A program made the position numbers and the translations under genes. 64,000 nucleotides of DNA from Bacillales bacterium (GTDB taxonomy: Bacteria; Bacillota_I; Bacilli_A; RF39; UBA660), in assembly GCA_016282375.1 (NCBI GenBank), contig JAEEKI010000023.1:14840-78839 (forward strand). Direction: 5' to 3'. A model generated the notes under the pieces. That model was not told the DNA's origin and did no database searches. It was given only the letters and a program-made list of their open reading frames with translations. Shown one piece after another: positions 11,370-64,000 of this stretch (its first letter is position 1; every line of letters begins with the position of its first letter).

Positions 11370-11467
11370 ATAATATTTCTCCTTTTTAGCGTTCTTATTA
11401 TAATATTTTAATTAACACTATGTCAAGAATAAATATTTACTTTTATATATAATAATGAAAGAAAAAT

Positions 11468-11626
11468 TTATCAACATAAAAATTATCAACAAAATCAACA
11501 ACATTAAAAAATAGGGAATGTTAATAAAATAAAATTATCAACAAATGAATTTTGTTGAAAGTGTTGATATGTTATGTTATCATACTAAACAAAAGGATAA
11601 AATGGTGTTGATAATATTGTTGATAA
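11468..11626. promoter_or_regulatory. oriC upstream DnaA-box cluster (at least 6 TTATCAACA-type boxes) plus AT-rich region
   Basis: TTATCAACA at 11469, 11484 and 11535. Reverse-complement TGTTGATA(A/T) at 11562, 11606 and 11618. Located between rpmH and dnaA. Confidence 0.7.
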
Positions 11627-11710
11627 CTATTTAAGATACACATTTTTCTTTATCTTTAAATCAAAATAAGATACAATGAAATTGTTAATAATTATGAGTG
11701 GGGTAAGGGT

Positions 11711-13066
11711 ATGAATGAAAATGAAATATTCAAAAACTTTTTAGAGTATATTCAACCAAAAGTTAATTTGAATTCTTTTAATTTATGGTTTGCATCTTTA
11801 GAACCTTTATCTTTTGATGGAGAGATATTAAATATCAAAGTACCAACATTAACTCATAAAAAAATACTTACTGATACATATAAAGATGTTGTAGATGAAG
11901 CGTTTTATGCAACTTTAAATAAAAAGATTCAAGTACAATATTATACTAATGATGAAATAGAAGCTGAAAAAGAGAAGAATAGTACAGTAATTGATGTTAG
12001 TCAATATCTAGAAGATGATTGGGAAAGTAATTTAAATCCTAATTTTACTTTTGATACCTTTGTAGTAGGGGATTCTAATAAATTTGCTGTTATGAATGCT
12101 CACATAGTTGCCGAAAATCCTGGTGTTGAGATTAATCCTTTCTTCTTATATGGAAAAAGTGGAATAGGTAAGACACACTTAATGCAAGCTATTGGTAACT
12201 ATATAATGGCTAATTCTAAAAAGAAAGTTCTTTATGTATCAAGTGAAGAATTTAGAGATGATTACACGGGTATTGCTAGTGTTAGTAAAGGTATAGATAC
12301 CATGAATTATGCCACTAGTTTTAAAAGAAAATACCAAAATGTTGATGTATTAATAATTGATGATATCCAATTTCTAGTAGATGCCGTTAAATCTCAACAA
12401 GAATTCTTCCATATATTTACGAATCTATATAATGCTAATAAACAAATTATCATCAGTAGCGATAAACCACCAGAAGAGTTAAAAAAATTTGAAGATCGTC
12501 TTCGTAGTCGATTTATGATGGGCTTATCGGTTGATATTCAACCACCAGATTTTGATCTAAAATGTAAGATAATTAAAAAGAAGATAGAAAATACAACTTT
12601 AAAAGGTAAATTAGACCATGAAATAATCGAATATATAGCTAATTCATGTAAGAATGATATTCGCCAAATCGAAGGGACTATCAAAAGATTAATGGCCTAT
12701 ACAGCGATGATGGGACCTACCAAAATTGATTTGAATTTTACAATGGAAGCACTCAATGATTACTTAAAAGTTAATATTTATGCAGAAAACTCTATTAGTA
12801 AAATTCAAAATATCGTTGCTGATTATTTCAATATATCAGTAAGTGATTTAAAAAGTAAAAAGAAAACTGCTAATATTGCAAAACCAAGACATATAGCTAT
12901 GTATCTATGTCGAGTTGATACAGAAGAAGGTTTAGCAAGAATTGGCTTAGAATTTGGAGGGAGGGATCATTCCACAGTATCTTCAGCACTGGATAAAATT
13001 ACTAGCGAATTAAAAACCGATAGTAAATTAAACATGATAATAAAGGATATTGAAAGTAAGTTATAA
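11711..13066 (+). CDS. dnaA: Chromosomal replication initiator DnaA
   Basis: AAA+ Walker A GKSGIGKTHLMQAIGN, IDDIQFL, and a C-terminal DNA-binding domain. Confidence 0.97.
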   Translation: MNENEIFKNFLEYIQPKVNLNSFNLWFASLEPLSFDGEILNIKVPTLTHKKILTDTYKDVVDEAFYATLNKKIQVQYYTNDEIEAEKEKNSTVIDVSQYLEDDWESNLNPNFTFDTFVVGDSNKFAVMNAHIVAENPGVEINPFFLYGKSGIGKTHLMQAIGNYIMANSKKKVLYVSSEEFRDDYTGIASVSKGIDTMNYATSFKRKYQNVDVLIIDDIQFLVDAVKSQQEFFHIFTNLYNANKQIIISSDKPPEELKKFEDRLRSRFMMGLSVDIQPPDFDLKCKIIKKKIENTTLKGKLDHEIIEYIANSCKNDIRQIEGTIKRLMAYTAMMGPTKIDLNFTMEALNDYLKVNIYAENSISKIQNIVADYFNISVSDLKSKKKTANIAKPRHIAMYLCRVDTEEGLARIGLEFGGRDHSTVSSALDKITSELKTDSKLNMIIKDIESKL

Positions 13067-17930: not shown

Positions 17931-20558
17931 GTGGGTGATATCATGAATGAAGACAATAAAGATTTAGAAGAATTATTAGAAAGAGCTGCTGAGGATCAAA
18001 ATGAGGCACCTGTAGAGCCATTTGAAGACCAAGATGATAAAAATATTGATACTCATGTTAATAACGCTGAATTTAGTGGCTATTTTCATGAGAGAGATAG
18101 TTTAACTGAAAATAATATTGTTAGTGAAGTAAGTACATCATTTTTGGAGTACTCAATGAGTGTTATAACAGCAAGAGCTTTACCGGACTTAAGAGATGGT
18201 TTAAAGCCTGTTAATAGACGTATTTTATGGGCAATGTATGAATCAGGTTATACACCAGATAAACCTCACCGTAAATCGGCAACAACTGTTGGTTATGTAA
18301 TGGGTAATTACCATCCACATGGTGATTCTTCCATTTATGAAGCAATGGTTAGAATGGCACAAGATTTTAACCAACGATATATGTTAATTGATGGACATGG
18401 TAACTTTGGTAATATCGAAGGTGATGGCGCTGCCGCCATGCGTTATACCGAATCTAGACTTGATAAATTATCTTTAGAATTACTTAGAGACATTCGTAAA
18501 GATACCGTAGATATGGATGATAACTTTGATTTTACGAAAAAAGAGCCACGCGTGTTACCGTCTAGATTTCCTAATATTTTAGTTAATGGAACAATGGGTA
18601 TTGCGGTTGGTATGGCAACAAATATTCCACCTCATAATTTAGGTGAAGTTATAGATGGATGTGTTGCTTATATTGATAATCCTGATATTGATGTTGATGG
18701 ATTAATGAAATATATTAAAGGACCAGATTTTCCAACCGGTGGTATTATCTTAGGAAATAAAGGTATTAAACAAGCTTATGAAACTGGCCGTGGTGGTATT
18801 GTAATAAGAAGTAAAGCCTCCATCGAAGAACATGGTACTCATAATGCAATTGTTATTACTGAAGTACCATATGGTGTTAATACTCTTGAATTAAAAAATA
18901 GAGTTGCTGAACTCGTTCATAACAAGATTATTGATGGTATTTCTGATTACCATACTGATTTAAAAGATGGTGTTAAAATTACTATTACTTTAAAGAAGGA
19001 TGCTAATCCTCAAGTCGTACTTAATAACCTATATAAACACACTAATTTTCAAGTTAATTACGGGATTATATTCTTAATGCTTGATAATGGTGTACCGCGT
19101 ACTTTAGGCTTAAAATCAATAATTTCCAAGTATATAGATCATCAAAAAGAAGTTATTATCCGTCGTACTAAGTTTGAATTAAATGAAGATGAAAAAAGAG
19201 TTCATATTTTAGAAGGTTTAAAGATTGCTTTAGATAATATTGATGAAGTAGTAGCAATCATTCGTTCGGCTAGTGATGATGAAGAAGCTAAGAGTAAATT
19301 AATGTCTCGTTTTGGACTATCTGAAGTTCAAAGTGATAACATCCTAGAAATGCGTTTAAAACGTTTAACAGGCTTAGAAAGAGACAAAATTGAAAGTGAA
19401 TTAAACGATTTACTAAAGGAAATTGACTATTTGAAGAGTGTTTTAGCTTCTGAACAAAAAGTATTAGATATTATTAAAGAAGAAATGCTTGAAATTAAGA
19501 AGAAATACTCAGATGAAAGACGTACACACATTGATATGACCGCTATTGAGTATATCGAAGATGAATCACTAATTCCTGAAGAAAACATCGTTGTTGCTTT
19601 ATCACATAATGGCTATATTAAAAGAGCTAATGTTGATACATATAAAACGCAACACCGTGGTGGAGTTGGGGTTAAAGGCATGGGTACAAACGAAGAAGAC
19701 TATATTGAACAATTAGTTAATTTATCTACTCATGATCATCTATTATTCTTCACAAATAAAGGTAAAGTATATCGCGTTAAAGGCTATGAAATACCTGAAT
19801 ATGGTCGTGCATCTAAAGGATTACCGGTTATTAACCTGTTAGCCATCGAAAAAGATGAAAGAGTTAATTCAATTGTTCCAGTATCACAAACGGAAAGTGA
19901 TGTTGATTATTTGTTCTTTGCAACCAAAGAGGGTATTGTTAAGAAAACATTGTTATCTGAGTTTGAAAATATCCGTAATTCTGGAAAAATATGTATTAAT
20001 TTAAGAGAAAGCGATGAATTAATAGGTGTTAAGAAAGTTAAAAAGAATGATTTTATTTTATTAGCATCCGATGCTGGAAGAATGGTAAGATTTAACGAAA
20101 CAGATGTTCGTGTTATGGGCAGAACAGCAAGCGGCGTTCGTGGAATTAATTTAGATAGTACAAACAAATGTATTTGTTTAGAAGTAGTTAACGACGAAGA
20201 CAACATCTTATTAATTACAGAAAAAGGTTATGGAAAACAAACAAAAGTTCTTGAATATCGTGAGACAAAACGTGGAAGTAAAGGTGTTAAAGCGTTAAAT
20301 ATTACAGATAAGAACGGAATTCTTGCGGCAGTAAAATTAGTTATTCCTGAAAATGATGTTATTATAATGACTAATCAAGGTATGGTTGTTAGAATACCTA
20401 TTAATCAAATATCTGAATACGGTCGAGTAACTCAAGGTGTTCGTGTTATTAATTTAAAAGATGGTCAATTAGTTGCAGCTGTTAGCTTAGTTTCTAGTGA
20501 TGAAAACGAAGAGTATTCAGAAAATAGCGCCGAAAATACGCCAAATTCTGAAGAATAA
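17931..20558 (+). CDS. gyrA: DNA gyrase subunit A
   Basis: 875 aa. Active-site region [10 protein letters not shown]-terminal beta-pinwheel repeats. Confidence 0.95.
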
Positions 20559-20566
20559 CTAGTCAA

Positions 20567-20680
20567 TGTTTCACGTGAAACATTGTTGATAAATTGTTGC
20601 TTTTATAAATTTTAATGTTACACGTGAAACATTGTTGATAATTTGTGATTAATAAAATTCGATATGTTTCACGTGAAACA
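20567..20680. repeat. Three copies of a 16-bp palindrome TGTT(T/A)CACGTGAAACA. The first two are extended to 26-nt direct repeats ending in a DnaA-box-like TTGTTGATAA
   Basis: Copies at 20567-20592, 20616-20641 (25/26 identical) and 20665-20680. They lie immediately upstream of the SRP RNA promoter and downstream of gyrA. Confidence 0.7.
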
Positions 20681-50596: not shown

Positions 50597-51279
50597 TGGG
50601 ACAAAAAGTTAATCCAATTGGATATCGTATCGGTGTTAATAAAGATTGGGATTCTAGATGGTATGCAGATAAAGATTATTCGAAAAATCTATTAAAAGAT
50701 ATTAAGATTAGAGAATATATCGAAAAGCATTTAAAAGATGCTGCTATTGCGAAAGTAATCATTGAAAGAAAGAAAGATCGTTGCGAAATTACATTAAATA
50801 CTGCTAAACCTGGTGTAATTATTGGCCGTGGTGGAGAAGATATTGAAAAGCTTCGTAAAGTAATTTCTAAATTAGTTAAAGAAGATGTTTACATTAATAT
50901 CGTTGAAGAAAAGAATCCAGATTTAAATGCCAAACTTGTTGCTGATAGCATTGCACTGCAAATTGAAAATAGAGCCCCATTTAGAACGGTTCAAAAAAGA
51001 GCTATCAGAAATACAATGAAAGCTGGCGCTAAAGGTATTAAGACTGCTGTTTCAGGTAGACTTGGTGGAGCAGAAATGGCTCGTACTGAAGGTTATACTG
51101 AAGGTACAGTGCCTCTACATACAATTAGAGCTGATGTTGATTATGCAACTAGTGAAGCTAATACAACTTATGGAAAAATCGGTGTAAAGGTTTGGATTTA
51201 TAAGAATGAAATCCTACCTGTTAAAAAAAGAACTACTAAGAAGGGAGCGGATTTAGATGTTGATGCCAAAGAGAACTAA
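50596..51279 (+). CDS. rpsC: 30S ribosomal protein S3
   Basis: [15 protein letters not shown] domain. Confidence 0.97.
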
Positions 51280-51682
51280 GTATCGTAAAAGTCATAGACT
51301 TAGTTATGAAGGAAAAGCTAAAGGAAATACAACTTTAACTCAAGGCGAATATGGTCTTCAAGCTGTTGAAGGCGCATGGATCTCTGCTCGTCAAATAGAA
51401 GCTGCTCGTATCGCAATGACTCGTTTTATGAAAAGAGGCGGAAAAGTTTATATTAACATTTTCCCTCATATGCCTAGAACAAAGAAACCTCTTGAAACTC
51501 GTCAAGGTAAAGGTAAAGGTAACGTTGAAGAATGGGTAGCAGTAGTTAAAAAGGGTAAAATTTTATTTGAAATAAGTGAGATTGATGGGGAAACAGCTCG
51601 TGAAGCATTAAGACTTGCATCTCATAAGTTATCACTTAAAACGAAATTCGTAGTAAAGGAGAGTGAAACTCTTGGAAATTAG
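51257..51682 (+). CDS. rplP: 50S ribosomal protein L16
   Basis: [11 protein letters not shown]. Confidence 0.95.
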
Positions 51683-51872
51683 TGAAATCAGAAAATTATC
51701 AAGTGAAGATTTGAAGAAAAAGATTGCTTCTAAAAAGGAAGAATTATTCACTAAAAGAATGCAAGCTTCTTCAGGAAATTTAGAAAAACCTGTTGAACTT
51801 CGCGTACTACGTAGAGAAATAGCAAGAATGAAAACAGTATTAAGAGAAAGAGAAATGGATGGTGAAAAATAA
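51663..51872 (+). CDS. rpmC: 50S ribosomal protein L29
   Basis: [30 protein letters not shown] or TTG start. Confidence 0.9.
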
Positions 51873-52129
51873 TGAATGAGTCTAAACAAGAATTAGTTGG
51901 TAGAGTTGTTAGTGATAAGACTGATAAAACTATTACTGTTTTAGTCGAAACTCACAAAAAACATCCATTATACGGAAAAAGAGTTAAATACTCTAAAAAG
52001 TATGCTGCTCATGATGAAAAGAATGAAGCAAAAGTAGGAGATACAGTTAGAATTAGAATGACAAAACCTATTTCAAAAACTAAACATTATGAATTAGTTA
52101 AAGTCATTGAAAAAGCTGTTATTCTATAG
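51872..52129 (+). CDS. rpsQ: 30S ribosomal protein S17
   Basis: Synteny. 85 aa. Confidence 0.93.
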
Positions 52130-52140
52130 GAGGTATTATT

Positions 52141-52509
52141 ATGGTAATGCAAGAATCTAGATTAAAAGTTGCTGATAATAGTGGCGCTCGTGAATTACTT
52201 GTTATTAGAGTAATGGGCGGCAGCAAAGTTAAAACAGCTAATATCGGTGATGTAGTTGTTGGAACTGTTAAAAAAGCAATACCTAATGGTACTGTTAAAG
52301 AAGGTAAAGTAGTTAAAGCTGTAATTGTTAGAACTGTTGAAGGCGTTAGACGTTCAGATGGCAGTTATATCAAATTTGGTGATAACGCTTGCGTTCTTAT
52401 TAAAGATGATAAATCACCAATTGGTACTCGTGTACTAGGACCAGTTGCTAGAGAATTACGTGAAAAAGATTACATGAAAATTGTATCTTTAGCACCTGAG
52501 GTTTTATAG
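52141..52509 (+). CDS. rplN: 50S ribosomal protein L14
   Basis: [22 protein letters not shown]. Confidence 0.97.
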
Positions 52510-52517
52510 GAGGATAT

Positions 52518-52811
52518 ATGAAGGTTAAAGTTGGAGACACTGTAAGAATTCTTGCCGGAAAAGATAAAGGCAAAGAAGGTAAAGTACTTAGAACAATTAA
52601 GCTTCAAAACCGTGTTGTAGTTGAAGGAATCAATGTTGCTAAAAAACATTCAAAACCTCGTACTACTGAAGATAAAGGCGGAATTATTGATATTGAAGCA
52701 CCTATCCATGTATCTAATGTAAAAGTTGTTGGTGAGAAAAAAGTAAAAGAAGCTAAGACAAAAGAAGTTAAAAAGGAAACTAAAAAAACTTCTAAGAAAG
52801 AATCAAAGTAG
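52518..52811 (+). CDS. rplX: 50S ribosomal protein L24
   Basis: [23 protein letters not shown] motif. Confidence 0.95.
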   Translation: MKVKVGDTVRILAGKDKGKEGKVLRTIKLQNRVVVEGINVAKKHSKPRTTEDKGGIIDIEAPIHVSNVKVVGEKKVKEAKTKEVKKETKKTSKKESK

Positions 52812-52818
52812 GTGAACT

Positions 52819-53358
52819 ATGAGTAATTTTAAAGAACTATATAATAAAGAAGTCATTAAGACTTTAATGGATGAATATCATTACACTACTGTAATGCAAG
52901 TACCTAGAATTGAAAAAATAGTTATTAACATGGGTGTCGGTGATGGTGCTCACGATTCTAAGTTTATGGATGCAGCTATTAAAGATCTTACTTTGATTGC
53001 TGGTCAAAAACCAGTTATAACTAAAGCTCGTAAATCAATTGCTGGTTTCCATTTAAGAGAAGGCCAATCAATTGGAGCTAAAGTTACACTTCGTGGCGAA
53101 AATATGTATTGTTTTCTTGAAAAACTTATTAAAGTGGCACTTCCTCGTGTAAGAGATTTTAGAGGTGTATCACCTAAGAGTTTTGATGGAAAAGGTAATT
53201 ATACACTAGGTATTAAAGAACAATTAATATTCCCAGAAATTGAATATGATGATGTTCTAAAGATTCGTGGTATGGACGTTGTAATTGTTACAACTGCTAA
53301 GACTGACGATGAAGCAAGAAGTTTACTAAAAGCATTTGGAATGCCTTTTAGAGGATAG
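52819..53358 (+). CDS. rplE: 50S ribosomal protein L5
   Basis: Synteny. 179 aa. Confidence 0.95.
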
Positions 53359-53369
53359 GAGAAGATAAT

Positions 53370-53555
53370 ATGGCAAAAACAAGTATGATTGTAAAAAATA
53401 ATCGTAAACCAAAATATGAAGTTAGAGCTTATACAAGATGTAAAAGATGTGGAAGACCTCATGGTGTTCTACGTAAATTCGAATTATGCCGTATTTGCTT
53501 CAGAGAACTTGCTAATAAAGGACAAATTCCTGGTGTAAAGAAATCTAGTTGGTAG
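53370..53555 (+). CDS. rpsZ: 30S ribosomal protein S14 type Z (zinc-binding)
   Basis: 61 aa with [20 protein letters not shown]. Confidence 0.95.
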
Positions 53556-53569
53556 GAAGGAGATAGTTT

Positions 53570-53968
53570 ATGTTTGTACAAGATAAAATAGCAGATATGC
53601 TTACAAGAATAAGAAATGCTAATCAAATGCGTTATGAAACTGTTGAAGTTTGCGGAACAAAGATGACTTTAGGCATTGCAGAAATTCTTAAAAAAGAAGG
53701 ATTTATTGCTGATTATAAATATGAAAAAGAAAAGACTGGCGATAAACTTGTTTTAACACTAAAATATGGTGAAAAGAAAGAAAGAGTTATAACTGGTCTT
53801 AAAAGAATTAGTAAATCTGGTTTAAGAGTTTATGCTAGCGCAGACGAACTTCCTAGAGTACTAAATGGATTAGGTATAGCAATTATTTCTACTTCTAAAG
53901 GTCTTATGACTGATAAAGAAGCTAGAAGTGCAGGGTTAGGAGGCGAAGTACTTGCCTATATTTGGTAA
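53570..53968 (+). CDS. rpsH: 30S ribosomal protein S8
   Basis: [13 protein letters not shown]. Confidence 0.95.
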
Positions 53969-53974
53969 GGTATT

Positions 53975-54514
53975 ATGAGTAGAATCGGAAATAGAAGACT
54001 TACTATCCCTGAAAAAGTTGAAGTTAATGTAACTGAGACTGATATTACAGTTAAAGGTCCAAAAGGCGAACTTAATATGTCATATAGTCCCCTTTTGAAA
54101 GTAACTGTAGAAGATAATGAAATTGTAGTTTCTAAAAAGAAAGATACAAAAGAAGCTAATATTATGTCTGGAACAACTAATGCTAACATTAACAATATGT
54201 TAGTTGGTGTAAGTAAAGGTTTTTCAAAAGAACTTGAAGCAGTAGGTGTAGGATATCGTTTTGCTGTATCCGGCAATAAGATTATTGTTAGTGCAGGATA
54301 TTCACATAATGTTGAAGTAGCAATCCCTAGTGGTATTACAGTTACTTCTCCATCAAATACTGAACTTACAATTAGTGGTTTTGATAGACAAAAGATTTCT
54401 GAATTTGCGGCAAATATTCGTAAGATCAGAGAACCAGAACCATACAAAGGTAAAGGTATAAGATACAAAGAAGAACATATTCGCCGTAAAGAAGGAAAGA
54501 AAGCGGCTAAGTAA
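53975..54514 (+). CDS. rplF: 50S ribosomal protein L6
   Basis: [17 protein letters not shown]. Confidence 0.95.
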
Positions 54515-54525
54515 AGGAGCAAGTT

Positions 54526-54879
54526 ATGATAAGTAAAGAGAAAAGAGAAGCAAGAATTAGAAGACATGCTCGTGTACGTAAGACTGTGTCTGGTACAAAA
54601 GAGATGCCTAGATTAAATGTTTTTAGATCAAATAATGCTATTTATGCTCAAGTAATTGATGATGTAGCAGGTGCTACTTTAGTTAGCTCATCAACATTGG
54701 AATTAAAGATTAAAAATGGTGGTAACATCGAAGCTGCAAAAGCCGTTGGTAAAGATGTAGCTGAAAAATGTAAAAAAGCTAAAATTAAGAAAGTTGTATT
54801 TGACCGTGGTGGTTACTTATATCACGGAAGAGTTGCTGCCCTTGCAGACGCTGCAAGAGAAGCAGGATTAGAGATATAG
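54526..54879 (+). CDS. rplR: 50S ribosomal protein L18
   Basis: Synteny. 117 aa. Confidence 0.93.
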
Positions 54880-54889
54880 GGAGGCATTT

Positions 54890-55423
54890 ATGGCAGAGAA
54901 AAAAGAAAAATTTGATAATAAAAAGAATTTTGATAATAAAGCAAAAACTAATTTATTAGAAGAAAAAGTTATCAATATTGGTAGGGTAACAAAAGTTACC
55001 CAAGGTGGTAGACACTTTCGTTTTAGCGCTACAGTAGCTGTCGGAAACCGCAAAGGTATCATAGGAATTGGTACTGGAAAGGCTAACGAAGTTCCAGAAG
55101 CTATTAAGAAAGCTTTACAAGCTGCTAATAAAAATGTTGTAAAGGTAAGTCTAGTTGATAATAGAACAATTCCTCATGAAGCAACTGGAAAAGTAGGTCG
55201 TGCTGTTGTATTAGTTAAACCTGCTAAAGAAGGTCGTGGAATTATCGCTGGTGGAGCAGCCAGAGCTGTTCTAGAACTTGCTGGTGTTAAGGATATTGTT
55301 GCTAAATCACTAGGAAGTAATACGCAAGTTAATGTTGCTAAAGCAACACTAAATGCTCTTATTTCTCAACGTACTAAAGAACATATTGCAGAACTTAGAG
55401 GAAAGAAAGTTGAGGAGTTATAA
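54890..55423 (+). CDS. rpsE: 30S ribosomal protein S5
   Basis: [23 protein letters not shown]. Confidence 0.95.
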
Positions 55424-55866
55424 TGAAATTAGAAAATTTACCAAAAACTGCTGAACTTAAAGCATCTAAAAGAGTAGGAAGAGGACCAGGTAGTGGTATG
55501 GGTAAGACTGCTACTCGTGGAGAAAATGGTCAAAAATCAAGAAGCGGTGCTTCAATTAAACCATGGTTCCAAGGTGGTCAATCTCCACTTTATAGAAGAA
55601 TTCCTAAAAGAGGATTCAATAATGCAAGATTTACAACACGTTTTGCTACTATTAATTTAAGTGATCTTAACAATTTCTTCAAAGACGGTGACGTTGTAAC
55701 TGAAGAAGTATTAAAAGAAAGAGGTATAATTAAGAAAAGACTTAGTGGTATTAAGATATTAGGTAATGGTAATTTAGAAAAGAAATTAACTATTAAAGCT
55801 AATCGTTTTACTACTACAGCCGTTTCTAAAATTGAAGAAGCAGGCGGCAAAGCCGAGGTGATCTAG
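55423..55866 (+). CDS. rplO: 50S ribosomal protein L15 (directly abuts rpsE; no L30 gene between them)
   Basis: [29 protein letters not shown]. Confidence 0.95.
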   Translation: MKLENLPKTAELKASKRVGRGPGSGMGKTATRGENGQKSRSGASIKPWFQGGQSPLYRRIPKRGFNNARFTTRFATINLSDLNNFFKDGDVVTEEVLKERGIIKKRLSGIKILGNGNLEKKLTIKANRFTTTAVSKIEEAGGKAEVI

Positions 55867-57132
55867 ATGTTTAAAGGTCTTAAAGGACTATTTAGTAAAA
55901 ACAACCGAGATCTTAGAAAGAAAATTTATTTCACATTATTTTGTTTAGGTATCTTTTGTTTAGGAACAGGAATTACTATTCCTTGGGCCTCAGTTGTATA
56001 CCAAGAATTAGGATTCTTAGAAATCTTTAATATCATGAGTGGTGGAGGTTTGCAAAATTTCTCAATATTTGCATTAGGTGTTTCACCTTATATTACTGCA
56101 TCAATCATTACAGAAATCCTTCAAATGGATATTGTTCCTTATTTTAAAGATTTAAAAGAACAAGGATATACAGGAAGACAAAAGATTAACCAAATAACAA
56201 GATATTTAGGTATAGCAATTGCCTTTTTCCAAGCATATGCTCTTACAGCCTTCTATATGAATGGTTTAGGAGCTATTGACATTTTAAAAACTACGCTTGT
56301 AATGGTTGCCGGAACTTCATTTTGTATGTGGATGGGTGATCAAATTACCAACAAGGGTTTAGGAAATGGTCAATCTATGCTAATTATGGCAGGTATTATT
56401 CAAAGTATGCCAAATATTTTTAGAGGTGCCTATTCAGCATTTATTACTGCTGGTACATACAGTAGTGGCTTAGGTATTACATTATTTACATTATTCTGTT
56501 TAATATATGTAATCATTATTGTTGGAATTACTTGGGTTCAACTTGCTGAAAGAAGAATTCCAATCCAATATTCTAATCGTACTAATGCTGCTTATGGTGC
56601 TCAAACAAATTATTTACCGCTTAAAATTAACTCAGCAAGCGTTATTCCTGTAATTTTTGCGTCAATTGTTACAACAATTCCGGCAACGATTGCAGCGCTT
56701 ACTAAGAAAAAAGCGATTATAAATTTTGTAAACAATTATATTGTCTATACTTCAAATACGGGATTTATTCTATACTTAGTATTAATTTTATTCTTTGGAT
56801 ATTTTTATACTTTCTTAGTAATGAATCCAACCGAAATGAGTAAAGACTTAAATGAACGTGGGGGGTATATTCCAGGGATTAGACCTGGTAAAGACACAGC
56901 AGATTACATTAGTAATTCTTTATCAAGACTTACATTAGTAGGTTCATTGTTCTTAATTATTTTAGCAGCAATGCCTATCTTGTTATCAAAGTTTACTAAT
57001 TTACCTTCAAGTGTAACTATCGGAGGTACAGGTATTCTGATTGTTGTCGGAGTTGCTATTGAAACATATAAGCAACTTGAAAGTAGTTTAGTTTCAAGAA
57101 GCTATTCTGCGAAAAGAAAGAGGCTAAGATAA
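55867..57132 (+). CDS. secY: Preprotein translocase subunit SecY
   Basis: 10-TM protein. 421 aa. Follows rplO. Confidence 0.95.
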   Translation: MFKGLKGLFSKNNRDLRKKIYFTLFCLGIFCLGTGITIPWASVVYQELGFLEIFNIMSGGGLQNFSIFALGVSPYITASIITEILQMDIVPYFKDLKEQGYTGRQKINQITRYLGIAIAFFQAYALTAFYMNGLGAIDILKTTLVMVAGTSFCMWMGDQITNKGLGNGQSMLIMAGIIQSMPNIFRGAYSAFITAGTYSSGLGITLFTLFCLIYVIIIVGITWVQLAERRIPIQYSNRTNAAYGAQTNYLPLKINSASVIPVIFASIVTTIPATIAALTKKKAIINFVNNYIVYTSNTGFILYLVLILFFGYFYTFLVMNPTEMSKDLNERGGYIPGIRPGKDTADYISNSLSRLTLVGSLFLIILAAMPILLSKFTNLPSSVTIGGTGILIVVGVAIETYKQLESSLVSRSYSAKRKRLR

Positions 57133-57782
57133 TGAAAAATATAATTTTTATTGCTCCACCCGCTGCGGGAAAAGGTACAGCTAGTGAATTACTTGTTGAA
57201 AGATTCGGTTATGAACATATTTCAACAGGTGATATGTTAAGAGAAGCCATTGCTTCTGGAAGTGAACTTGGAAATGAAGTAAAGAGTATTATGGAACAAG
57301 GTCAACTTGTTAGCGATGAAATCGTCATAGCTTTACTTAAAGAAAAAATAGAAGAAATCAAAGGTAAATCATTTATTTTAGATGGATTCCCAAGAACATT
57401 ACCACAAGCTGAAGAATTAAATACCATTTTTCAAGAAGAAGGCATCGATAATTACGTAGCAATTTTCTTAGATGTTTCTGAAGAACTTGCTATGCAAAGA
57501 TCATTAGGTAGAATTACTTGCAGTAAGTGCGGTACAATATTCCATCGCTATTTTGAGAGTAAAAAACCAAAAGTTGAAGGAGTTTGTGATAACTGCGGAG
57601 CAGAATTAATTAGCCGTAGTGATGATAATGAAGAATCTTTCAAGAAGAGATTCGAGACTTATATCAGTAATAGCAAAGCAATTTTAGACTATTACAAAGA
57701 TAAAAATAGACTTGAAATTATTAATGCAAATCGTGAAGCTCAAGAATCTATTGTAGATATTGAGAAGGTCATTAATGATTAG
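57132..57782 (+). CDS. adk: Adenylate kinase (zinc-lid type)
   Basis: P-loop GAPGAGKGT-like IFIAPPAAGKGT. Lid CSKCG...CDNCG. Confidence 0.95.
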   Translation: MKNIIFIAPPAAGKGTASELLVERFGYEHISTGDMLREAIASGSELGNEVKSIMEQGQLVSDEIVIALLKEKIEEIKGKSFILDGFPRTLPQAEELNTIFQEEGIDNYVAIFLDVSEELAMQRSLGRITCSKCGTIFHRYFESKKPKVEGVCDNCGAELISRSDDNEESFKKRFETYISNSKAILDYYKDKNRLEIINANREAQESIVDIEKVIND

Positions 57783-58518
57783 TATTCGTAGTCAACGCGA
57801 AATTGCATTAATGAGACAAGCTGGGCATATCAATTATTTAACTCACCAAGAGTTAAAAAAGCATATTAAGGCTGGTATAACAACTGGTGAGTTAAATGAT
57901 ATCGCCGATAAATTTATGCGCAAGTTAGGTGGAAAGCCTAGTTGTTTAAATTACGAAGGATATCCTAAAAGTATATGTATTTCTATTAATGACGAAGTTG
58001 TACATGGGATACCGGGAAATCGTAAGTTAAAAAATGGTGATATTGTATCAATAGACTTTTGTGTTGAGTACAAAGGCTATCAAAGTGATGCTACCATTAC
58101 ACATATCGTCGGTAGCGTAAGTAAAGAAGTAGAAGATTTAGTAATAAATACAGAAAAGAGTTTGTATATTGGTATTAATGAAGTAAAACCTGGTGCTAAA
58201 GTTAGCGCTATTGGTAAAGCCATCGAAGATTATGCAACAAAGTGTGGTCTTGGAGTGGTAAGAGAACTTGTTGGTCATGGACTTGGAACAAGTATTCATG
58301 AAGATCCAGATGTTCCCAATTATTATACTAATATGCCAACAGTTTTAAAGGAAGGTATGGTTATTGCTATTGAACCAATGTTAACATTAGGAAAAAGATA
58401 TGTTTATCTTAAAGATGATAACTGGACAGTTGCAACCGATGATGGACTTCCAGCAGCTCATTTTGAGCATACTGTATTAGTTACAAAAGATGGCTATGAA
58501 ATATTAACGGGAGAGTGA
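57775..58518 (+). CDS. map: Methionine aminopeptidase type I
   Basis: [18 protein letters not shown]. Metal-binding Asp/His/Glu pattern. Confidence 0.93.
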
Positions 58519-58528
58519 TATAGAAGAT

Positions 58529-58753
58529 ATGGCTAAAAAGAATAGTGATAAAATTGAAGTTGAAGGCAAAGTTGTTGAAGTATTAAAGGGTAGTGACTAT
58601 CTTGTTGAACTTCAAAACGGACATACTGTAAAAGCCTACGTTTCTGGTAAAATGCGCATCCATATGATTCGTATCTTACCAGGTGATACCGTTACAGTAG
58701 AATTGTCGCCTTATGATTTAACACGTGGGATTATAACATGGAATAAGAGATAG
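58529..58753 (+). CDS. infA: Translation initiation factor IF-1
   Basis: 74 aa S1-like fold. [19 protein letters not shown]. Confidence 0.95.
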
Positions 58754-58765
58754 GAGTGAATAAGG

Positions 58766-58879
58766 ATGAAAGTTAGACCATCTGTCAAAAAAATTTGCAA
58801 GAAATGCAAAGTAATTAAGAGAAAAGGTAAAGTTATGGTTATTTGTAATAACCCTAAACATAAACAAGTACAAGGATAG
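58766..58879 (+). CDS. rpmJ: 50S ribosomal protein L36
   Basis: Manual translation gives [37 protein letters not shown]. Not in the ORF track. Confidence 0.93.
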
Positions 58880-58887
58880 GAGATATT

Positions 58888-59262
58888 ATGGCAAGAATTA
58901 AAAATATTGAATTACCAAGTGAAAAACAAGCATGGGTTGGCCTTACAGCTATCTATGGTATTGGTAAGAATTTAGGTAAAACAATTTGTGAGAATGCAAA
59001 AGTTGAACCATCAAAGAAAGTTAAAGATTTAACTGAAGATGAAGTAAATGCTCTTCGTAAAGAAGTTGAAAAACATTTAACTGAAGGTGATCTTCGTCGT
59101 GAAGTTCAAATGAGCATTAAGAACAAGATGGAAATCAATTGTTATCAAGGTATTAGACACAAAAAAGGACTTCCAGTAAGAGGTCAAAGAACTAATCGTA
59201 ACGCACACACTCGTAAGGGTCGTGGAAAAGTTGTTGCAAACAAGAAAAAGGTTGGAAAGTAG
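58888..59262 (+). CDS. rpsM: 30S ribosomal protein S13
   Basis: MARIKNIELPSEKQAWVGLTAIYGIG. Confidence 0.95.
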   Translation: MARIKNIELPSEKQAWVGLTAIYGIGKNLGKTICENAKVEPSKKVKDLTEDEVNALRKEVEKHLTEGDLRREVQMSIKNKMEINCYQGIRHKKGLPVRGQRTNRNAHTRKGRGKVVANKKKVGK

Positions 59263-59272
59263 GTGTTAGTTT

Positions 59273-59656
59273 ATGGCATATAATAGAAGAAAGAAAAAAG
59301 TTAAAAATACTGTTACTGAAGCTGAAGCACATATTCATGCAACATATAATAACACTATCGTAACAATCAGTGATCATAATGGTAACGCTATCAGTTGGTC
59401 ATCAGCTGGTAGAATTGGTTATAAAGGTAGCAAAAAGAAAACTCCATTTGCTGCTGGACTAACTGCTGAAGCTGCTGCGGCTGCTGCTAAAGAACAAGGC
59501 GTTGTAAAAGTAGATGTTTATGTAAAAGGTTTAGGACCTGGAAGAGAAAATGCTATTCGTAGTATACAAACTGCTGGTCTTGAAATTACAAGTATTACTG
59601 ATGAAACACCAGTTCCACACAACGGATGTCGTCCACCAAAAAGACCAAGAAATTAA
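59273..59656 (+). CDS. rpsK: 30S ribosomal protein S11
   Basis: Synteny. 127 aa. Confidence 0.95.
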
Positions 59657-59674
59657 TTTAAGGGGGTATTGTGA

Positions 59675-60619
59675 ATGATAAAATTTGAAAAACCAGAATA
59701 TAAAATTACGGAATATCAAGAATCTAATAATTATGGAAAATTTGAACTAGAACCACTTGAAAGAGGTTTTGGTACTACAATTGGTAATGCTCTAAGAAGA
59801 GTATTATTATCAAGTCTTCCAGGAAGTAGTGTTATATCTGTAAAAATCGATGGTGTTATGCATGAATTCCAAAAAATCGATGGCATTATCGAAGATGTTA
59901 CAACTATTGTTTTAAATATTAAGAAATTAGTTGTAAAAAATCATTCTGAAGATATTAAAACATTAAAATTATCTGCTAATAAAGAAGGCGTAGTTACAGC
60001 TGCTGACTTTGAAAAAGATGCAGATATCGAAGTAATTAATCCAGATTTAGTTATTTGTACACTTGTTAAGGGTGGCAAAATTGATATGGAACTTACGATT
60101 GCTAATGGTCGTGGTTATGTTGAAGCAAAAGTTAATAAAGAATTACTAGGGGATGCTAAAGTTGGTGTTATTCCTGTTGATTCAAACTTTTCACCTATCG
60201 AAGTTGTTAAATACGAAGTATTAGATACACGTGTAGGTCAAAATGAAAACTATGATAAATTAGTTTTAGAAGTAACTACTGATGGTAGTATGACTCCAGA
60301 AGAAGCTATTGCTCTTGCTTCGAAGATTTTAGTTGAGCATTTTAATTTATTATGTGATTTAAATAGTATTGCTAATGTATCTGGTATAATGCAAGAAAAA
60401 CATGTTGATACAATGACTAAGACATTAGAAACACCAATCGAAGAAGTTGAATTCTCAGTAAGAGCATATAATTGCTTAAAAAGAGCTGGTATTCATACCA
60501 TTCAAGATTTAGTTAACAAAAAAGAAATAGAAGTTACAAAGATTAGAAACTTAGGAAAGAAATCTTTAAAAGAAGTTCTTGATAAAGTTGCTGATTTAGG
60601 ACTAGAGTTTAAGGAGTAG
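59675..60619 (+). CDS. rpoA: DNA-directed RNA polymerase alpha subunit
   Basis: 314 aa. N-terminal dimerisation and C-terminal alphaCTD motifs. Confidence 0.95.
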   Translation: MIKFEKPEYKITEYQESNNYGKFELEPLERGFGTTIGNALRRVLLSSLPGSSVISVKIDGVMHEFQKIDGIIEDVTTIVLNIKKLVVKNHSEDIKTLKLSANKEGVVTAADFEKDADIEVINPDLVICTLVKGGKIDMELTIANGRGYVEAKVNKELLGDAKVGVIPVDSNFSPIEVVKYEVLDTRVGQNENYDKLVLEVTTDGSMTPEEAIALASKILVEHFNLLCDLNSIANVSGIMQEKHVDTMTKTLETPIEEVEFSVRAYNCLKRAGIHTIQDLVNKKEIEVTKIRNLGKKSLKEVLDKVADLGLEFKE

Positions 60620-60622
60620 AAT

Positions 60623-60964
60623 ATGGCATATCGTAAATTAGGTAGAGATACTCAAGTAAGAAGAAGCATTTTAGCTGGTCTTACTAAAGATGTTATCAAT
60701 CATGAAAGTATTATTACAACAGAAACTAGAGCTAAAGAAGTACGTAAGTTTGTTGATAAAATGATTACTTACGGAAAAGATGGTTCCCTAGTTTCTCGTA
60801 GAAAAGCATTAGCTTTCCTACATAATGATAAAGACACAGTTGCCAAGGTATTTAATGATCTTGCAAAAAGATATGAATCAAGAGATGGCGGTTATACAAG
60901 AATAGTTAAACTTGCTGAACGTCGTGGCGATGATGCTTTAGAGGTTAAATTAGAATTAGTATAG
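60623..60964 (+). CDS. rplQ: 50S ribosomal protein L17
   Basis: [15 protein letters not shown]. Confidence 0.95.
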
Positions 60965-60983
60965 TGAAAACTATACTTTTTTG
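60958..60983 (+). terminator. Rho-independent terminator after rplQ
   Basis: Stem agtatag/ctatact, loop tgaaaa, followed by TTTTTT. Confidence 0.5.
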
Positions 60984-61012
60984 TTGCGTGAAAATATTGC
61001 CTTTGCTATAAT
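60984..61012 (+). promoter_or_regulatory. Near-consensus sigma-A promoter TTGCGT-17-TATAAT for paralog P2
   Basis: ttgcgt (60984-60989), a 17-nt spacer, then tataat (61007-61012). RBS ataggagtgg. ATG at 61038. Confidence 0.55.
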
Positions 61013-61037
61013 GAACCTATAAGATAGGAGTGGCTAT

Positions 61038-62183
61038 ATGAAAAAGAATAATATTGTATTAATAGTTATCGCCATCGTTACATTACTAACATTTATTATC
61101 GGAGCAACGTATGCATATTTTGCTACAGGCAATTTAAATATTACAAATGCTGCTAATATTAATACGGTAACAGAACGAAACAACATGGTCTTTGATACTA
61201 TAGGTGGTGGAATGATTCTAAATATAACGGCAGCCAATATGGCTGAGAGTCTAAGTGGAAATGTAGCGGCGGAGAATAATACGACCCTAACCGTTAATTT
61301 TACAGCTAACACAAGTTATAGTATGGTATGTACATATGATATTGTGTATGAATGGACTTCAAGTGACAAATATACAGCTCATACAAGTGGAGTATCATCA
61401 AATGAATTTACGATTCAAGGAACACTAGCAAGTAATGTGCATGTTAGTGAAGGGACAAATAGTATTAAAACTGAGAAGGATTTATCAACTTTATCATATA
61501 CAAACTATAGTGCCATCGTCGTAAGTGGAGCGCAAATAGACGGAACTGGAAATACAATGAGTACGGCCGTATGGACCTTATCAAGTAAGTTTTATAATGT
61601 AAGCCAAGATCAAAGTGCTTTATCAGGCAAAACATATAGTGGTAGATTTAAAGTAGCTAATGTCTCATGTACAGCAGGAACTGTAACAGTACCTGGCCCA
61701 ACAAGTTATTGGTTTCCAACAACAACATCAACATTGAATAGTAGCACTAATCAATATGAACCAACTTATACACATCCCGCAACAGGAGGGCCAGTGCAAT
61801 CAAGCGGAAGCGCAACAAATCATAATGTATATATAGGACAAGATAGTAGTAAGTATTATGCATGTGCTATAATTCAAGGCCATGAAATATGTTTAAGCCA
61901 ACCATATACACAATATGGACTTGAAGGACACACAAGAGGACATTTTACGGACGCACAACAAGTAAGCGCGAGGCAAGCTATCTACCAAGTATTTATTGAT
62001 GCTGGAATAACAGTTGATATCAATAATGATTGCTACGCTGGTCCCACTAGCACTGCCTGCTGTGTGGGCTACCTCTACTGTGAAGCGAACATCTTCGGCT
62101 TTGTCGATTGTATATATGACGATAACAACGAGAGCGAGTCCTGTGGAGTTGACCGACTTGGCCATGCCTATTGTTATTTGTAG
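61038..62183 (+). CDS. Secreted Cys-rich protein, paralog P2 (same family as 4040..5194), with a GC-anomalous 3' end
   Basis: MKKNNIVLIVIAIVTLLTFIIGATYAYFATGN... signal peptide. Homologous to P1 and P3 over its whole length. The final roughly 50 codons are Cys-rich and about 55% GC. Confidence 0.75.
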   Translation: MKKNNIVLIVIAIVTLLTFIIGATYAYFATGNLNITNAANINTVTERNNMVFDTIGGGMILNITAANMAESLSGNVAAENNTTLTVNFTANTSYSMVCTYDIVYEWTSSDKYTAHTSGVSSNEFTIQGTLASNVHVSEGTNSIKTEKDLSTLSYTNYSAIVVSGAQIDGTGNTMSTAVWTLSSKFYNVSQDQSALSGKTYSGRFKVANVSCTAGTVTVPGPTSYWFPTTTSTLNSSTNQYEPTYTHPATGGPVQSSGSATNHNVYIGQDSSKYYACAIIQGHEICLSQPYTQYGLEGHTRGHFTDAQQVSARQAIYQVFIDAGITVDINNDCYAGPTSTACCVGYLYCEANIFGFVDCIYDDNNESESCGVDRLGHAYCYL

Positions 62184-62310
62184 GATTAGTTGTCCTCTGC
62201 GGGAGTGCTCGAATATCTTAATATCTTGAAACTAATTTTGCCGACAGGCAAAATTTAAGGCCAATGGGTGCACAAGCGTGAGTGTAGGCACACGAAAAAT
62301 TATCAAAATA

Positions 62311-62353
62311 ATGTAAAAAAAATAGTATAATTCTTAGAACTATACTATTTTTT
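62311..62353. terminator. Bidirectional terminator between P2 and ispG
   Basis: Stem atagtata/tatactat flanked by an A8 run and a T7 run. Confidence 0.45.
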
Positions 62354-63417
62354 TATCATTTCATTTATGATTTTTTTTAATTCAGGTATTATATCTTCTT
62401 GTTTTCCTTTTTTGATAATTTCTCCTTTTTTAAAGATAACTGCTTCGTTTATACCTCCGGCTATACCAATATCGGCTTCCTTGGCTTCTCCAGGACCATT
62501 AACTGCACATCCCATGACAGCAACAGTAATATCATTATTTATAGTTTGTAAAAAGGATTCAATTTCTTTAGCAATTGGTAATAAATTATTCTTGTTCTAC
62601 CACAGGTTGGACATGATATTAATTTGGGTCCAGGGAATAGATTACAATCTTTTAATATTTCTTTAGCTACAAGGATTTCTTCTTTGGGATTATCTGATAA
62701 TGAAACACGAATTGTATTACCAATGCCTTTTTTAAGAAGAATGCCAAGACCAATACTAGATTTAATAGTACCACTAAATTTAGTACCTGATTCTGTTATC
62801 CCAATATGAAGAGGATATGTAAATACTTTAGATGCCTGTTCATAGGCTTTTATACATAAATCCAAGTCTGTGGCTTTAAGAGATAGGCATATATCATAAA
62901 AACCATATTTTTCTAATATGGCAACATTTCTTTTTGCACTTTCAATCATTCCTTTAACAGTAACTTTATTATTAGCTAATAAATTTTTTTCTAAAGAACC
63001 TCCATTAATACCAATTCTAATAGGAATATGTTGTTTCTTACAAGCATCAACTACCTTTTTAATATTTTCTTCAGAACCAATATTACCAGGATTAATTCTA
63101 ATTTTATCAACACCACTTTTAATGGCTTCAAGAGCTATTTTATAATCAAAATGAATATCGGCTACGATAGGAATATGAATTTGTTTTTTAATATCTTTGA
63201 TGGCTTTGGCATCTTCGAGATCTAAACATGCTACTCTAATTATTTCACAGCCAACATTTTCTAATTCTAAGATTTGTTTAACAGTGGCATTAACATCCTT
63301 GGTTTTAGTATTAGTCATTGATTGAATTACGACTTTGTTATTTCCTCCAATTTCGATATTTCCAACTTTAATTGCTTTTGTTTGTGTTCTTTTATACATA
63401 TGATACAATCCTTTCAT
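62345..63417 (-). pseudogene. ispG: 4-hydroxy-3-methylbut-2-enyl diphosphate synthase IspG (GcpE), interrupted by a single-nucleotide frameshift near 62575. It is either a pseudogene or a sequencing error
   Basis: The 292-aa ORF 62539..63417 ends ...SCPTCGRTRIIYYQLLKKLNPFYKL*. The +1 frame at 62345..62575 encodes the expected C-terminus IAKEIESFLQTINNDITVAVMGCAVNGPGEAKEADIGIAGG..., including the 4Fe-4S Cys. Confidence 0.6.
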
Positions 63418-63501: not shown

Positions 63502-64000
63502 TATGAAAAAGAATAATGCTGTTTTAATAACAATTATTATAGTAATATTATTAGCCTTAGTAATAGGGGCAACGTATGCATATTTTGCTACAGGTAATTT
63601 AAATATAACGAATGTAGCCAATGTAAATACGGTAACAGAACGAAACAACATGGTATTTGATACTCTAGGTGGCGGGATGAGTCTTAATATTACGGCAGCG
63701 AATATGTCCGAGAGTCTAAGTGGTAATTTAGCCGCGGAGAATAATACAACATTAACGGTTAATTTTACTGCCAACACCAGTTATAGTATGGTCTGTACAT
63801 ATGATATTGTCTATGAATGGACATCCTCAGATAAATATACAGCTCATACAAGTGGAGTATCGTCAAATGAATTTACTATTCAAGGAACACTTGCAAATAA
63901 TGCTCATGTAAGTGAAGGAACCAATAATATAAGTAGTGAAACAGACCTATCAACATTAACATATACAAATTACAGTGCAACGGTGGTAAGTGGAGCCCAA
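63502..64000 (+). CDS. Secreted protein paralog P3 (N-terminal 166 aa; continues beyond the window)
   Basis: MKKNNAVLITIIIVILLALVIGATYAYFATGNLNITNVANVNTVTERNNMVFDT... is about 85% nucleotide-identical to P2 over the first 500 nt. RBS gtaggagt. Confidence 0.75.

Follow-up and report, generated by a model that had tools for sequence, protein, structure and literature searches.

Results

The P2 locus and its GC-rich 3′ end

We analysed 64,000 nucleotides (nt) from a Bacillales bacterium (GenBank assembly GCA_016282375.1, contig JAEEKI010000023.1, positions 14,840 to 78,839 of the forward strand), the whole of which we call the window. Near its right end lies a gene, P2, which finishes in a GC-rich patch within AT-rich surroundings. 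We read this patch, with a probability of about 0.85, as the variable region (VR) of a target gene of a diversity-generating retroelement (DGR), followed by its 3′ target-site elements. The patch is not foreign DNA, and the retroelement itself lies outside the window; the P2 element is a previously undescribed example of the DGR, a well-known type of system. P2, its parts and its paralogs in the window are:

61038 to 62183, plus strand: P2, an open reading frame (ORF) for a 381-residue surface protein, read as of the DGR-target type
P2 protein: N-terminal hydrophobic helix (residues 3-31), beta-rich trunk (about 50-215) and C-terminal domain (216-381)
61683 to 62180, plus strand: the VR-bearing C-terminal domain, residues 216-381, as modelled by AlphaFold2 (AF2)
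62031 to 62186, plus strand: the VR, beginning with the first Cys codon in the tail and ending a few bases after the stop codon; the core of the GC-rich patch
4055 to 5194, minus strand: P1 (P0027), a paralog with 67% identity to P2 along its full length
63503 to 64000, plus strand: P3 (P0039), a paralog truncated by the end of the window; its visible part has 87% identity to P2

In a DGR, a reverse transcriptase (RT) together with the protein Avd copies the RNA of a template repeat (TR), misincorporating opposite adenines. The cDNA then takes the place of the VR, at the 3′ end of the target gene; one-way transfer is ensured by a GC-rich element for the initiation of mutagenic homing (IMH) and by a hairpin downstream.

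Windowed GC content bore out the anomaly to which an earlier note on this DNA had drawn attention. The mean GC content of the window is 30.3% (standard deviation 5.0% for 186-nt windows); that of positions 62030-62215 is 49.5%, a value reached or exceeded in just 0.1% of such windows. The patch spans the last 50 codons of P2 and about 30 nt past its TAG (62181-62183); GC content is 50% in 62184-62215, so that the enrichment does continue beyond the stop as had been stated, and 42.7% in 62184-62300. The atypical codons described for the end of the gene are equally real: in the last 50 codons (62031-62180) overall GC is 0.50, GC and C at third codon positions (GC3, C3) are 0.56 and 0.46, third-position pyrimidines (Y3) are 0.82 and the fraction of A is 0.20. 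Across 1520 reference windows of 50 codons, the corresponding means were 0.306 for GC, 0.175 for GC3, 0.081 for C3 and 0.371 for A, and the P2 tail lies beyond all of them (maximum GC3 0.36, maximum C3 0.24, minimum A 0.213). When the 50-residue tail was re-coded with the codon usage of the window, its GC was 0.354 ± 0.018 and none of 20,000 simulations reached 0.50; the anomaly is thus one of codon choice and not of amino-acid content. The equivalent tail of P1 has background composition (GC 0.35, GC3 0.12), ordinary and AT-rich as the earlier note had it.

The P1 tail aligns with that of P2 on the same Cys scaffold, and therefore the P2 tail is not an unrelated cassette. The flank downstream of P1 is quite different from that of P2: P1 is without the IMH-like segment, the 20-nt box and the hairpin described below, the hairpin motif being found once in the window. 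The full-length tail of P3 is not of the VR type.

Relatives of P2 with complete DGRs

A homolog 69% identical to P2, P0023, is located on a metagenome scaffold, L043, which is collinear with the window over 11.3 kb (window 51046-62301; 85.4% nucleotide identity; 96.5% amino-acid identity of RpoA); the shared stretch runs from the operon for ribosomal proteins, by way of rpoA and rplQ, to the P2 ortholog and its flank. The order 3′ of the ortholog in L043 is a small MutS_I-like ORF, a TR, bAvd (PF22296) and an RT (PF00078), the MutS_I match being weak (E = 0.006, under the Pfam cut-off). The VR of L043 (10993-11176), to which the P2 VR is homologous in position, differs from the TR (11728-11911) at 24 of 184 positions, and all 24 fall at adenines of the TR (19 A>G, 5 A>T). 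Confinement of the differences to template adenines is the defining signature of a DGR. The L043 template encodes CGANDNNANCNVGDFNCEVNNNGYVNC..., with scaffold residues in adenine-free codons and variable positions written as AAC or AAT.

Through homologs of the RT we reached two further complete DGRs, L052 (GCA_016295295.1) and L051 (GCA_020624035.1), whose VRs have the same Cys-rich scaffold and differ from their TRs at adenines in 24 of 24 and 15 of 17 cases, respectively. A second scaffold from the sample of L043, L044, bears a paralog but lacks an RT in the 10 kb around it; of the 23 mismatches between its VR and the L043 TR, one is at a non-adenine position. Remote targets therefore exist in this lineage. 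The flank of this remote target (L044 11132-11300) retains L043 sequence into the first codons of the MutS-like gene, which suggests, as far as the sequence goes, that target and flank may have been duplicated from a cassette-adjacent copy.

A VR/TR finder run on all fetched loci detected four more DGRs beside genes of the P2 trunk family; these four (L020, L029, L039 and L041) come from more distant metagenome-assembled genomes (MAGs) of gut and other Bacilli. The trunk-family genes there encode about 600-730 residues. In L039 and L041 (target ORF reconstructed) the VR lies in a different, DUF6273-like head with tails such as ...GVRGVVSL...GSGTY..., so that DGR-diversified heads of at least two kinds occur on one trunk family. 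RTs in the phage collection are at most 33% identical to that of L043, so this DGR looks chromosomal.

The complete DGR loci reproduce the composition of the patch. Their VRs have 55-58% GC and their TRs 47-48% in loci of 27-31% GC; over the last 50 codons, proven VRs have GC 0.53-0.57, GC3 0.52-0.56, C3 0.40-0.48 and A 0.15-0.21, and the P2 tail has the same composition. In the mechanism that we propose, a small MutS-like protein acts alongside RT and Avd in this lineage. The TR of this family encodes a Cys/Gly/Val scaffold in adenine-free codons with AAC or AAT at the variable positions. Mutagenesis from such a template would leave a VR rich in NNC and NNT codons and poor in A, and hence a patch that looks foreign in a 30% GC genome because of AAC/AAT-templated mutagenesis on an adenine-free scaffold. 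Where a gene of an AT-rich genome ends in a sharp island rich in GC and C3 and poor in A, this can be the footprint of a DGR VR, even if no RT is nearby.

A second assembly and exchange of the trunk

An independent assembly, L001 (GCA_016295045.1), contains an ortholog of P2 whose tail and flank are identical to those of the window within a perfect block of 1155 nt (61579-62733). Upstream of this block, the 5′ third of P2 is 65-80% identical to L001 (window 61036-61580 against L001 1268-1810), the remaining gene being 100% identical; on the far side of the neighbouring gene ispG, identity is 78-95%. In L001 a further paralog stands in tandem upstream of the ortholog; its tail, too, is raised in GC, and it shares the box and hairpin described below. 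The trunk is mosaic between two strains that are nearly identical otherwise, and these alignments show that the trunk, not the tail, was exchanged, probably by recombination among paralogs.

The window comes from a MAG, in which a chimera with a read from a GC-richer organism might be suspected. Yet the reading frame and the Cys scaffold run through the patch, the same sequence occurs over 1155 nt in L001, and the AT-rich context on either side of the patch is syntenic; we consider an assembly chimera to have next to no chance of being the explanation.

Probable target-site elements 3′ of the VR

Downstream of the VR, the following elements succeed one another:

62187 to 62211, plus strand: IMH-like GC-rich 3′ boundary TAGTTGTCCTCTGCGGGAGTGCTCG, 64% GC, at the position of the L043 segment that is invariant between VR and TR
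62215 to 62234, plus strand: 20-nt box ATCTTAATATCTTGAAACTA, directly 5′ of the hairpin
62235 to 62254, plus strand: hairpin ATTTTGCC-GACA-GGCAAAAT, with an 8-bp stem (9 bp as 62234-62255) and a 4-nt loop
62268 to 62293, plus strand: second conserved element GTGCACAAGCGTGAGTGTAGGCACAC, non-coding, 3′ of the hairpin
62295 to 62375, no strand assigned: AT-rich inverted repeat (I10) with 40-nt arms, 80% complementary, flanked by A and T runs; probably a terminator acting in both directions, on P2 and on the convergent ispG

Identity of VR and TR in the L043/L044 alignment extends through TAGTTTGCGGCTCTGGTTGCCCCGCCC and then ends. The IMH-like segment of P2 (62187-62211) is placed like this shared segment of L043, there being no TR of P2 with which to compare it. 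The 20-nt box hardly varies across the window, both L001 copies, L002, L043, L044 and L053b, among which the IMH sequences differ; it was not found 3′ of TRs.

In Bordetella phage BPP-1, a hairpin or cruciform just 3′ of the VR is needed for retrohoming (Guo et al., PMC3240598), and DGR targets generally have a 7-10 bp stem with a 4-nt GRNA loop 4-34 bp after the VR (PMC3240598). The P2 hairpin has a stem of 8-9 bp and the loop GACA, and starts 23 nt past the IMH-like end, in agreement with these rules. The earlier note was right about a perfect 8-bp stem with no T-run, which it placed at 62225-62244; the true position is 62235-62254. The hairpin occurs once in the window, dominates the centroid DNA fold of the flank and is also present 3′ of related VRs, with the loop GGTA in L043 and GATA in the L001 paralog. 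Among seven sequences aligned by hand, 96.8% of cells were paired and five pairs were changed on both sides, which none of 500 shuffles reached, the alignment register having been picked by the analyst and being biased toward structure. At L002 648-667 the hairpin loop is inverted on the sense strand, reading TATC in place of GATA.

Within the second conserved element, AGTGTAGGCAC is found exactly once in the window. A pattern match showed GTGCC...GTGTAGGCAC to be conserved after the VRs of L043 and L052, and by eye the element is present also in L051 (as TTGTAGGCAC), in L044 and in the upstream copy of L001. The GTGCC...AGTGTAGGCAC form lies at window 62268-62293, L043 11245-11267 and L052 4753-4782, and is kept even where the sequences of the DGR hairpin and IMH differ.

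A structured RNA, or another nucleotide-level element overlapping the end of the gene, could in principle drive the GC content of the patch, as GC-rich islands in AT-rich genomes are often RNA genes and the flank is conserved with hairpins. No Rfam match was found up to E = 10 in 62000-62300, however, nor any tRNA or tmRNA; the fold energy of the flank is unexceptional (z = -1.37), and in its coding part the patch is not conserved but hypervariable among relatives. We therefore give this explanation very little credence.

Variability of the tail follows template adenines

Several results bear on DGR mutagenesis independently of P2's own template. Across 53 homologs, the entropy of tail columns was 2.90 bits where the codon of the L043 TR contains an adenine and 1.19 bits where it does not (Mann-Whitney p = 1.4e-7), and Y, G, S, D and N predominate at AAY positions. 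We also compared differences by codon position, since ordinary divergence falls on third positions and DGR diversification on positions 1 and 2. Between L043 and L044, the differences at positions 1, 2 and 3 were 0.17, 0.21 and 0.02 in the VR and 0.09, 0.05 and 0.18 in the trunk. Between P2 and L054, its closest relative with DNA, they were 0.40, 0.42 and 0.32 in the VR and 0.08, 0.10 and 0.27 in the trunk. P2 thus has a VR at its 3′ end (Y3 0.82, C3 0.46, A 0.20) in which variability, by the entropy map and the excess at positions 1-2, falls on AAY-templated codons.

The earlier note had taken the patch for a recently acquired or exchanged 3′ cassette, attached to a conserved trunk as in the swapping of polymorphic-toxin or adhesin C-termini. 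It was right in that a conserved N-terminal trunk here bears a C-terminal cassette that is hypervariable. A recent foreign origin is not supported, in view of the full-length homology of the tail, the composition of VRs in relatives and the DGR target-site elements, and neither is toxin-type swapping, as L001 shows exchange of the trunk. The composition is indeed strongly atypical, and the family does carry modular C-terminal heads on a common trunk. Nevertheless, the tail is homologous to those of paralogs and orthologs, with the same Cys scaffold, and GC-richness is common to every DGR-type tail and TR in relatives of 27-31% GC. The excess is specifically of third-position C with depletion of A, as AAC-templated mutagenesis predicts. 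In addition, the phage collection gave no DNA match, a metagenome scan gave the same locus only, and it was the trunk and not the tail that recombined between the window and L001. Delivery of the cassette from a GC-richer donor, whether by horizontal transfer or by polymorphic-toxin-style swapping, is accordingly most improbable. Horizontal transfer from a GC-rich donor, a structured RNA and an assembly chimera were all rejected on the evidence given here and above.

Silent copies of the tail, which the earlier note had envisaged elsewhere, were a sound idea because DGR VRs are rewritten from a silent TR; a repeat search and an adenine-tolerant scan yielded none in the window. Nor are there immunity genes nearby, as a polymorphic-toxin system would have, the downstream gene being the convergent ispG. 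What had seemed a signal of horizontal transfer is resolved into a known mutational mechanism.

Remote target or recent relic

Several observations weigh against a DGR target. By tblastn, the RT, Avd and MutS-like ORF of L043 have no counterpart in the 64-kb window, and a repeat search, an adenine-tolerant scan of both strands and a search for the TR-spacer motif found no copy of a TR there. The adenine-tolerant scan of 52 fetched loci likewise gave no cognate TR for the VR or IMH of P2. An IMH 23-mer had 0 matches in IMG/VR, a 19-mer searched in JGI metagenomes matched L001 only, apart from chance matches in contigs of 47-70% GC, and among the best 120 RT homologs none was assigned to the contig of the window. 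The L043 TR differs from the P2 VR at many non-adenine positions, by two extra codons and in the IMH, and because of the many non-adenine differences it is not the template of P2. As no TR of P2 was found in the window, the 52 loci, IMG/VR or JGI, the adenine-specific comparison of VR with TR is one made in relatives (L043 24/24, L052 24/24, L051 15/17). The hairpin, too, departs from type: its stem is AT-rich, with 3 of 8 GC pairs, where published stems are GC-rich, and relatives have loops other than GRNA (TATC in L002, TTTG in L051, GATG in L054). The loop sequence reportedly matters in BPP-1. Finally, the VR is identical in L001, which gives no evidence of ongoing diversification; this identity is part of the 1155-nt identical block and so is uninformative on DGR activity.

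A DGR RT, usually with Avd, lies in the same genome as its target and typically next to it, and none is present within the 64 kb. Since remote targets are documented (PMC5758913) and L044 is one, this absence does not exclude P2 from the DGR targets. With no RT, Avd or TR in the window or found elsewhere, P2 is therefore served remotely, by a DGR in another part of the genome, or else it is a relic, a VR orphaned recently.

If P2 were a relic, its tail would have been written by a DGR whose cassette (MutS-like gene, TR, avd and RT) was since lost or relocated, leaving the VR frozen. Collinearity with L043 stops at 62301, exactly where the L043 cassette starts, and the window has the terminator-like repeat, the convergent ispG and P3 in its place. 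The RT and TR for the P2 VR were not found in the searches made, the VR is the same in L001, and target elements have visibly decayed in some family members (L053a and L054). Against this, the composition of P2 is indistinguishable from that of VRs with a live TR, whereas the unserviced tail of P1 has a GC3 of 0.12. The IMH-like segment, the box, the perfect GRNA-loop hairpin and the second element are all intact; L044 is a remote target in this lineage, chromosomal DGRs with such targets have been documented (PMC5758913), and the identity with L001 tells little, for the reason given. To judge by sequence, the composition of the VR and its intact target-site elements argue for recent writing. 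We regard a relic as possible but somewhat doubtful; whether a DGR elsewhere in the genome still services P2 in trans, set against a recent relic, is about an even bet. In either case we infer that a cognate TR wrote the VR of P2.

The P2 protein family and the predicted structure of the VR domain

P2 is a membrane-anchored or secreted surface protein. Its N-terminal helix contains a conserved ATYAYF motif, and ...GATYAYF... resembles a SipW-cognate signal peptide, which we take to be that of TIGR04088; a scan of P2 with NCBIfam did not confirm it, giving no match to the SipW-dependent (TasA-type) signal peptide at E ≤ 1. P2 has no Pfam or NCBIfam match at all, and no homolog is annotated in either for its architecture. 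The 130 homologs of P2 all come from MAGs of uncultured ‘Bacilli bacterium’ of rumen and gut and from metagenomes. Across them the last 50 or so residues are hypervariable on a fixed scaffold, C..C.VG.L.C.V...G.V.C.D.S...C.VD..G.A.C. Further family members match P2 in the N-terminal approximately 215 residues only and carry other heads: DUF6273 or DUF6273-like, LRR and, in one member, PT-HINT. We thereby identify as DGR targets the surface proteins of a multigene family in uncultured Bacilli of rumen and gut; these bacteria appear to tune their surface binding specificities in this way.

AF2 modelled full-length P2 with a pLDDT of 79.6, and the C-terminal domain (residues 216-381) alone with a pLDDT of 94.6 and a pTM of 0.89. 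The predicted fold combines a beta-hairpin and a long helix with a Cys-stapled beta-meander of five strands, to which the VR corresponds. Foldseek searches of the domain against PDB and BFVD returned nothing at E ≤ 1e-3 (best TM ≤ 0.29), a sequence profile search of PDB with the domain gave 0 matches, and no family member matched DUF1566, FGE-sulfatase or other Pfam families of C-type lectins. The domain is rare, with 57 representatives in 1.84 billion proteins. P2 thus gives no match that would place its VR in a domain with the C-type-lectin fold, the fold of the Mtd, TvpA and DUF1566/FGE-sulfatase classes. In the largest published survey, annotated VR regions are systematically C-type lectins (PMC8144416).

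The diversified residues presumably form the ligand-binding tip of P2, on the small Cys-rich beta-meander at its C-terminus, and we infer a function in binding for the protein. We propose tentatively, at slightly less than even odds, that a non-lectin, Cys-stapled beta-meander is a new scaffold for DGR hypermutation, confined to a narrow lineage of uncultured rumen and gut Bacilli and borne by a modular trunk on which a second, different DGR-diversified head (DUF6273-like) is found as well, and that its target-site elements, the 20-nt box and GTGCC...GTGTAGGCAC, are undescribed for other DGRs. A confidently modelled VR domain with no match to C-type lectins merits structural follow-up.

Comparison with known systems

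P2 resembles the mtd target of BPP-1 in that its VR makes up the last 50 or so codons and runs past the stop, followed by a GC-rich boundary and then, within 4-34 bp, by a hairpin with an 8-bp stem and a GRNA loop (PMC3240598); the AAY-codon logic at variable positions is also the same. Unlike BPP-1, where the target is a phage tail fibre, the P2 locus is chromosomal in uncultured Bacilli of 30% GC. It differs further in its AT-rich hairpin, in the extra 20-nt box and second conserved element, in having no match to C-type lectins and in having neither RT nor TR in the window.

The Legionella DGR carries a MutS-like (MSL) protein and diversifies the surface lipoprotein LdtA. Like the MSL-containing chromosomal DGRs of architecture D (Wu et al. 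2018, PMC5758913), to which it corresponds, the cassette of P2's relatives combines a MutS_I-like ORF with Avd and RT, and the target is surface-anchored with a diversified C-terminus. The Legionella VR, in contrast, belongs to the DUF1566/CLec2 category, the VR of the P2 family lies in a Cys-rich beta-meander with no such match, and the MutS_I match is weak.

In Treponema denticola, one TR serves several targets of the TvpA family that are distant from the RT (PMC5758913). The TR of L043 with the VR of L044 is a comparable case, and P2, with no adjacent RT, would be in the same situation. The TvpA targets have a C-type-lectin fold of the FGE-sulfatase type, and no serving DGR for P2 was found in the collections searched. 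The resemblance to polymorphic toxins and variable adhesins lies in a family trunk with alternative C-terminal modules, including the one PT-HINT member; unlike tails exchanged by cassette swapping, that of P2 varies point-wise, at template-adenine positions on a fixed scaffold.

Other features of the window

The gene convergent to P2, ispG (gcpE; window 62345-63417, minus strand), is split into a 292-residue ORF and a 56-residue GcpE_C ORF by a one-base frameshift near 62585-62600, just past the CPTCGRT motif (GGTAGAACAAGAATAAT). L001 has the frameshift in common with the window but within the 1155-nt block, and is therefore not an independent confirmation; ispG may be a pseudogene, or the two assemblies may have an error in common.

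One other patch in the window alone reaches 45% GC or more, at 2603-2973 in the 3′ part of an ORF on the minus strand (2517-3872). It encodes the Pro/Ala/Val/Gln-rich, low-complexity C-terminal region of a ParB-like protein, and its GC content is likely explained by amino-acid composition. Positions 11458-11651 contain an imperfect inverted repeat of 46 nt with many TTATCAACA-like motifs, upstream of an ORF of 451 residues (11711-13066); by gene order this is probably the dnaA/oriC region. Just 3′ of an 875-residue ORF (17931-20558), positions 20565-20662 hold two tandem 49-nt copies, each with the palindrome TGTTTCACGTGAAACA.

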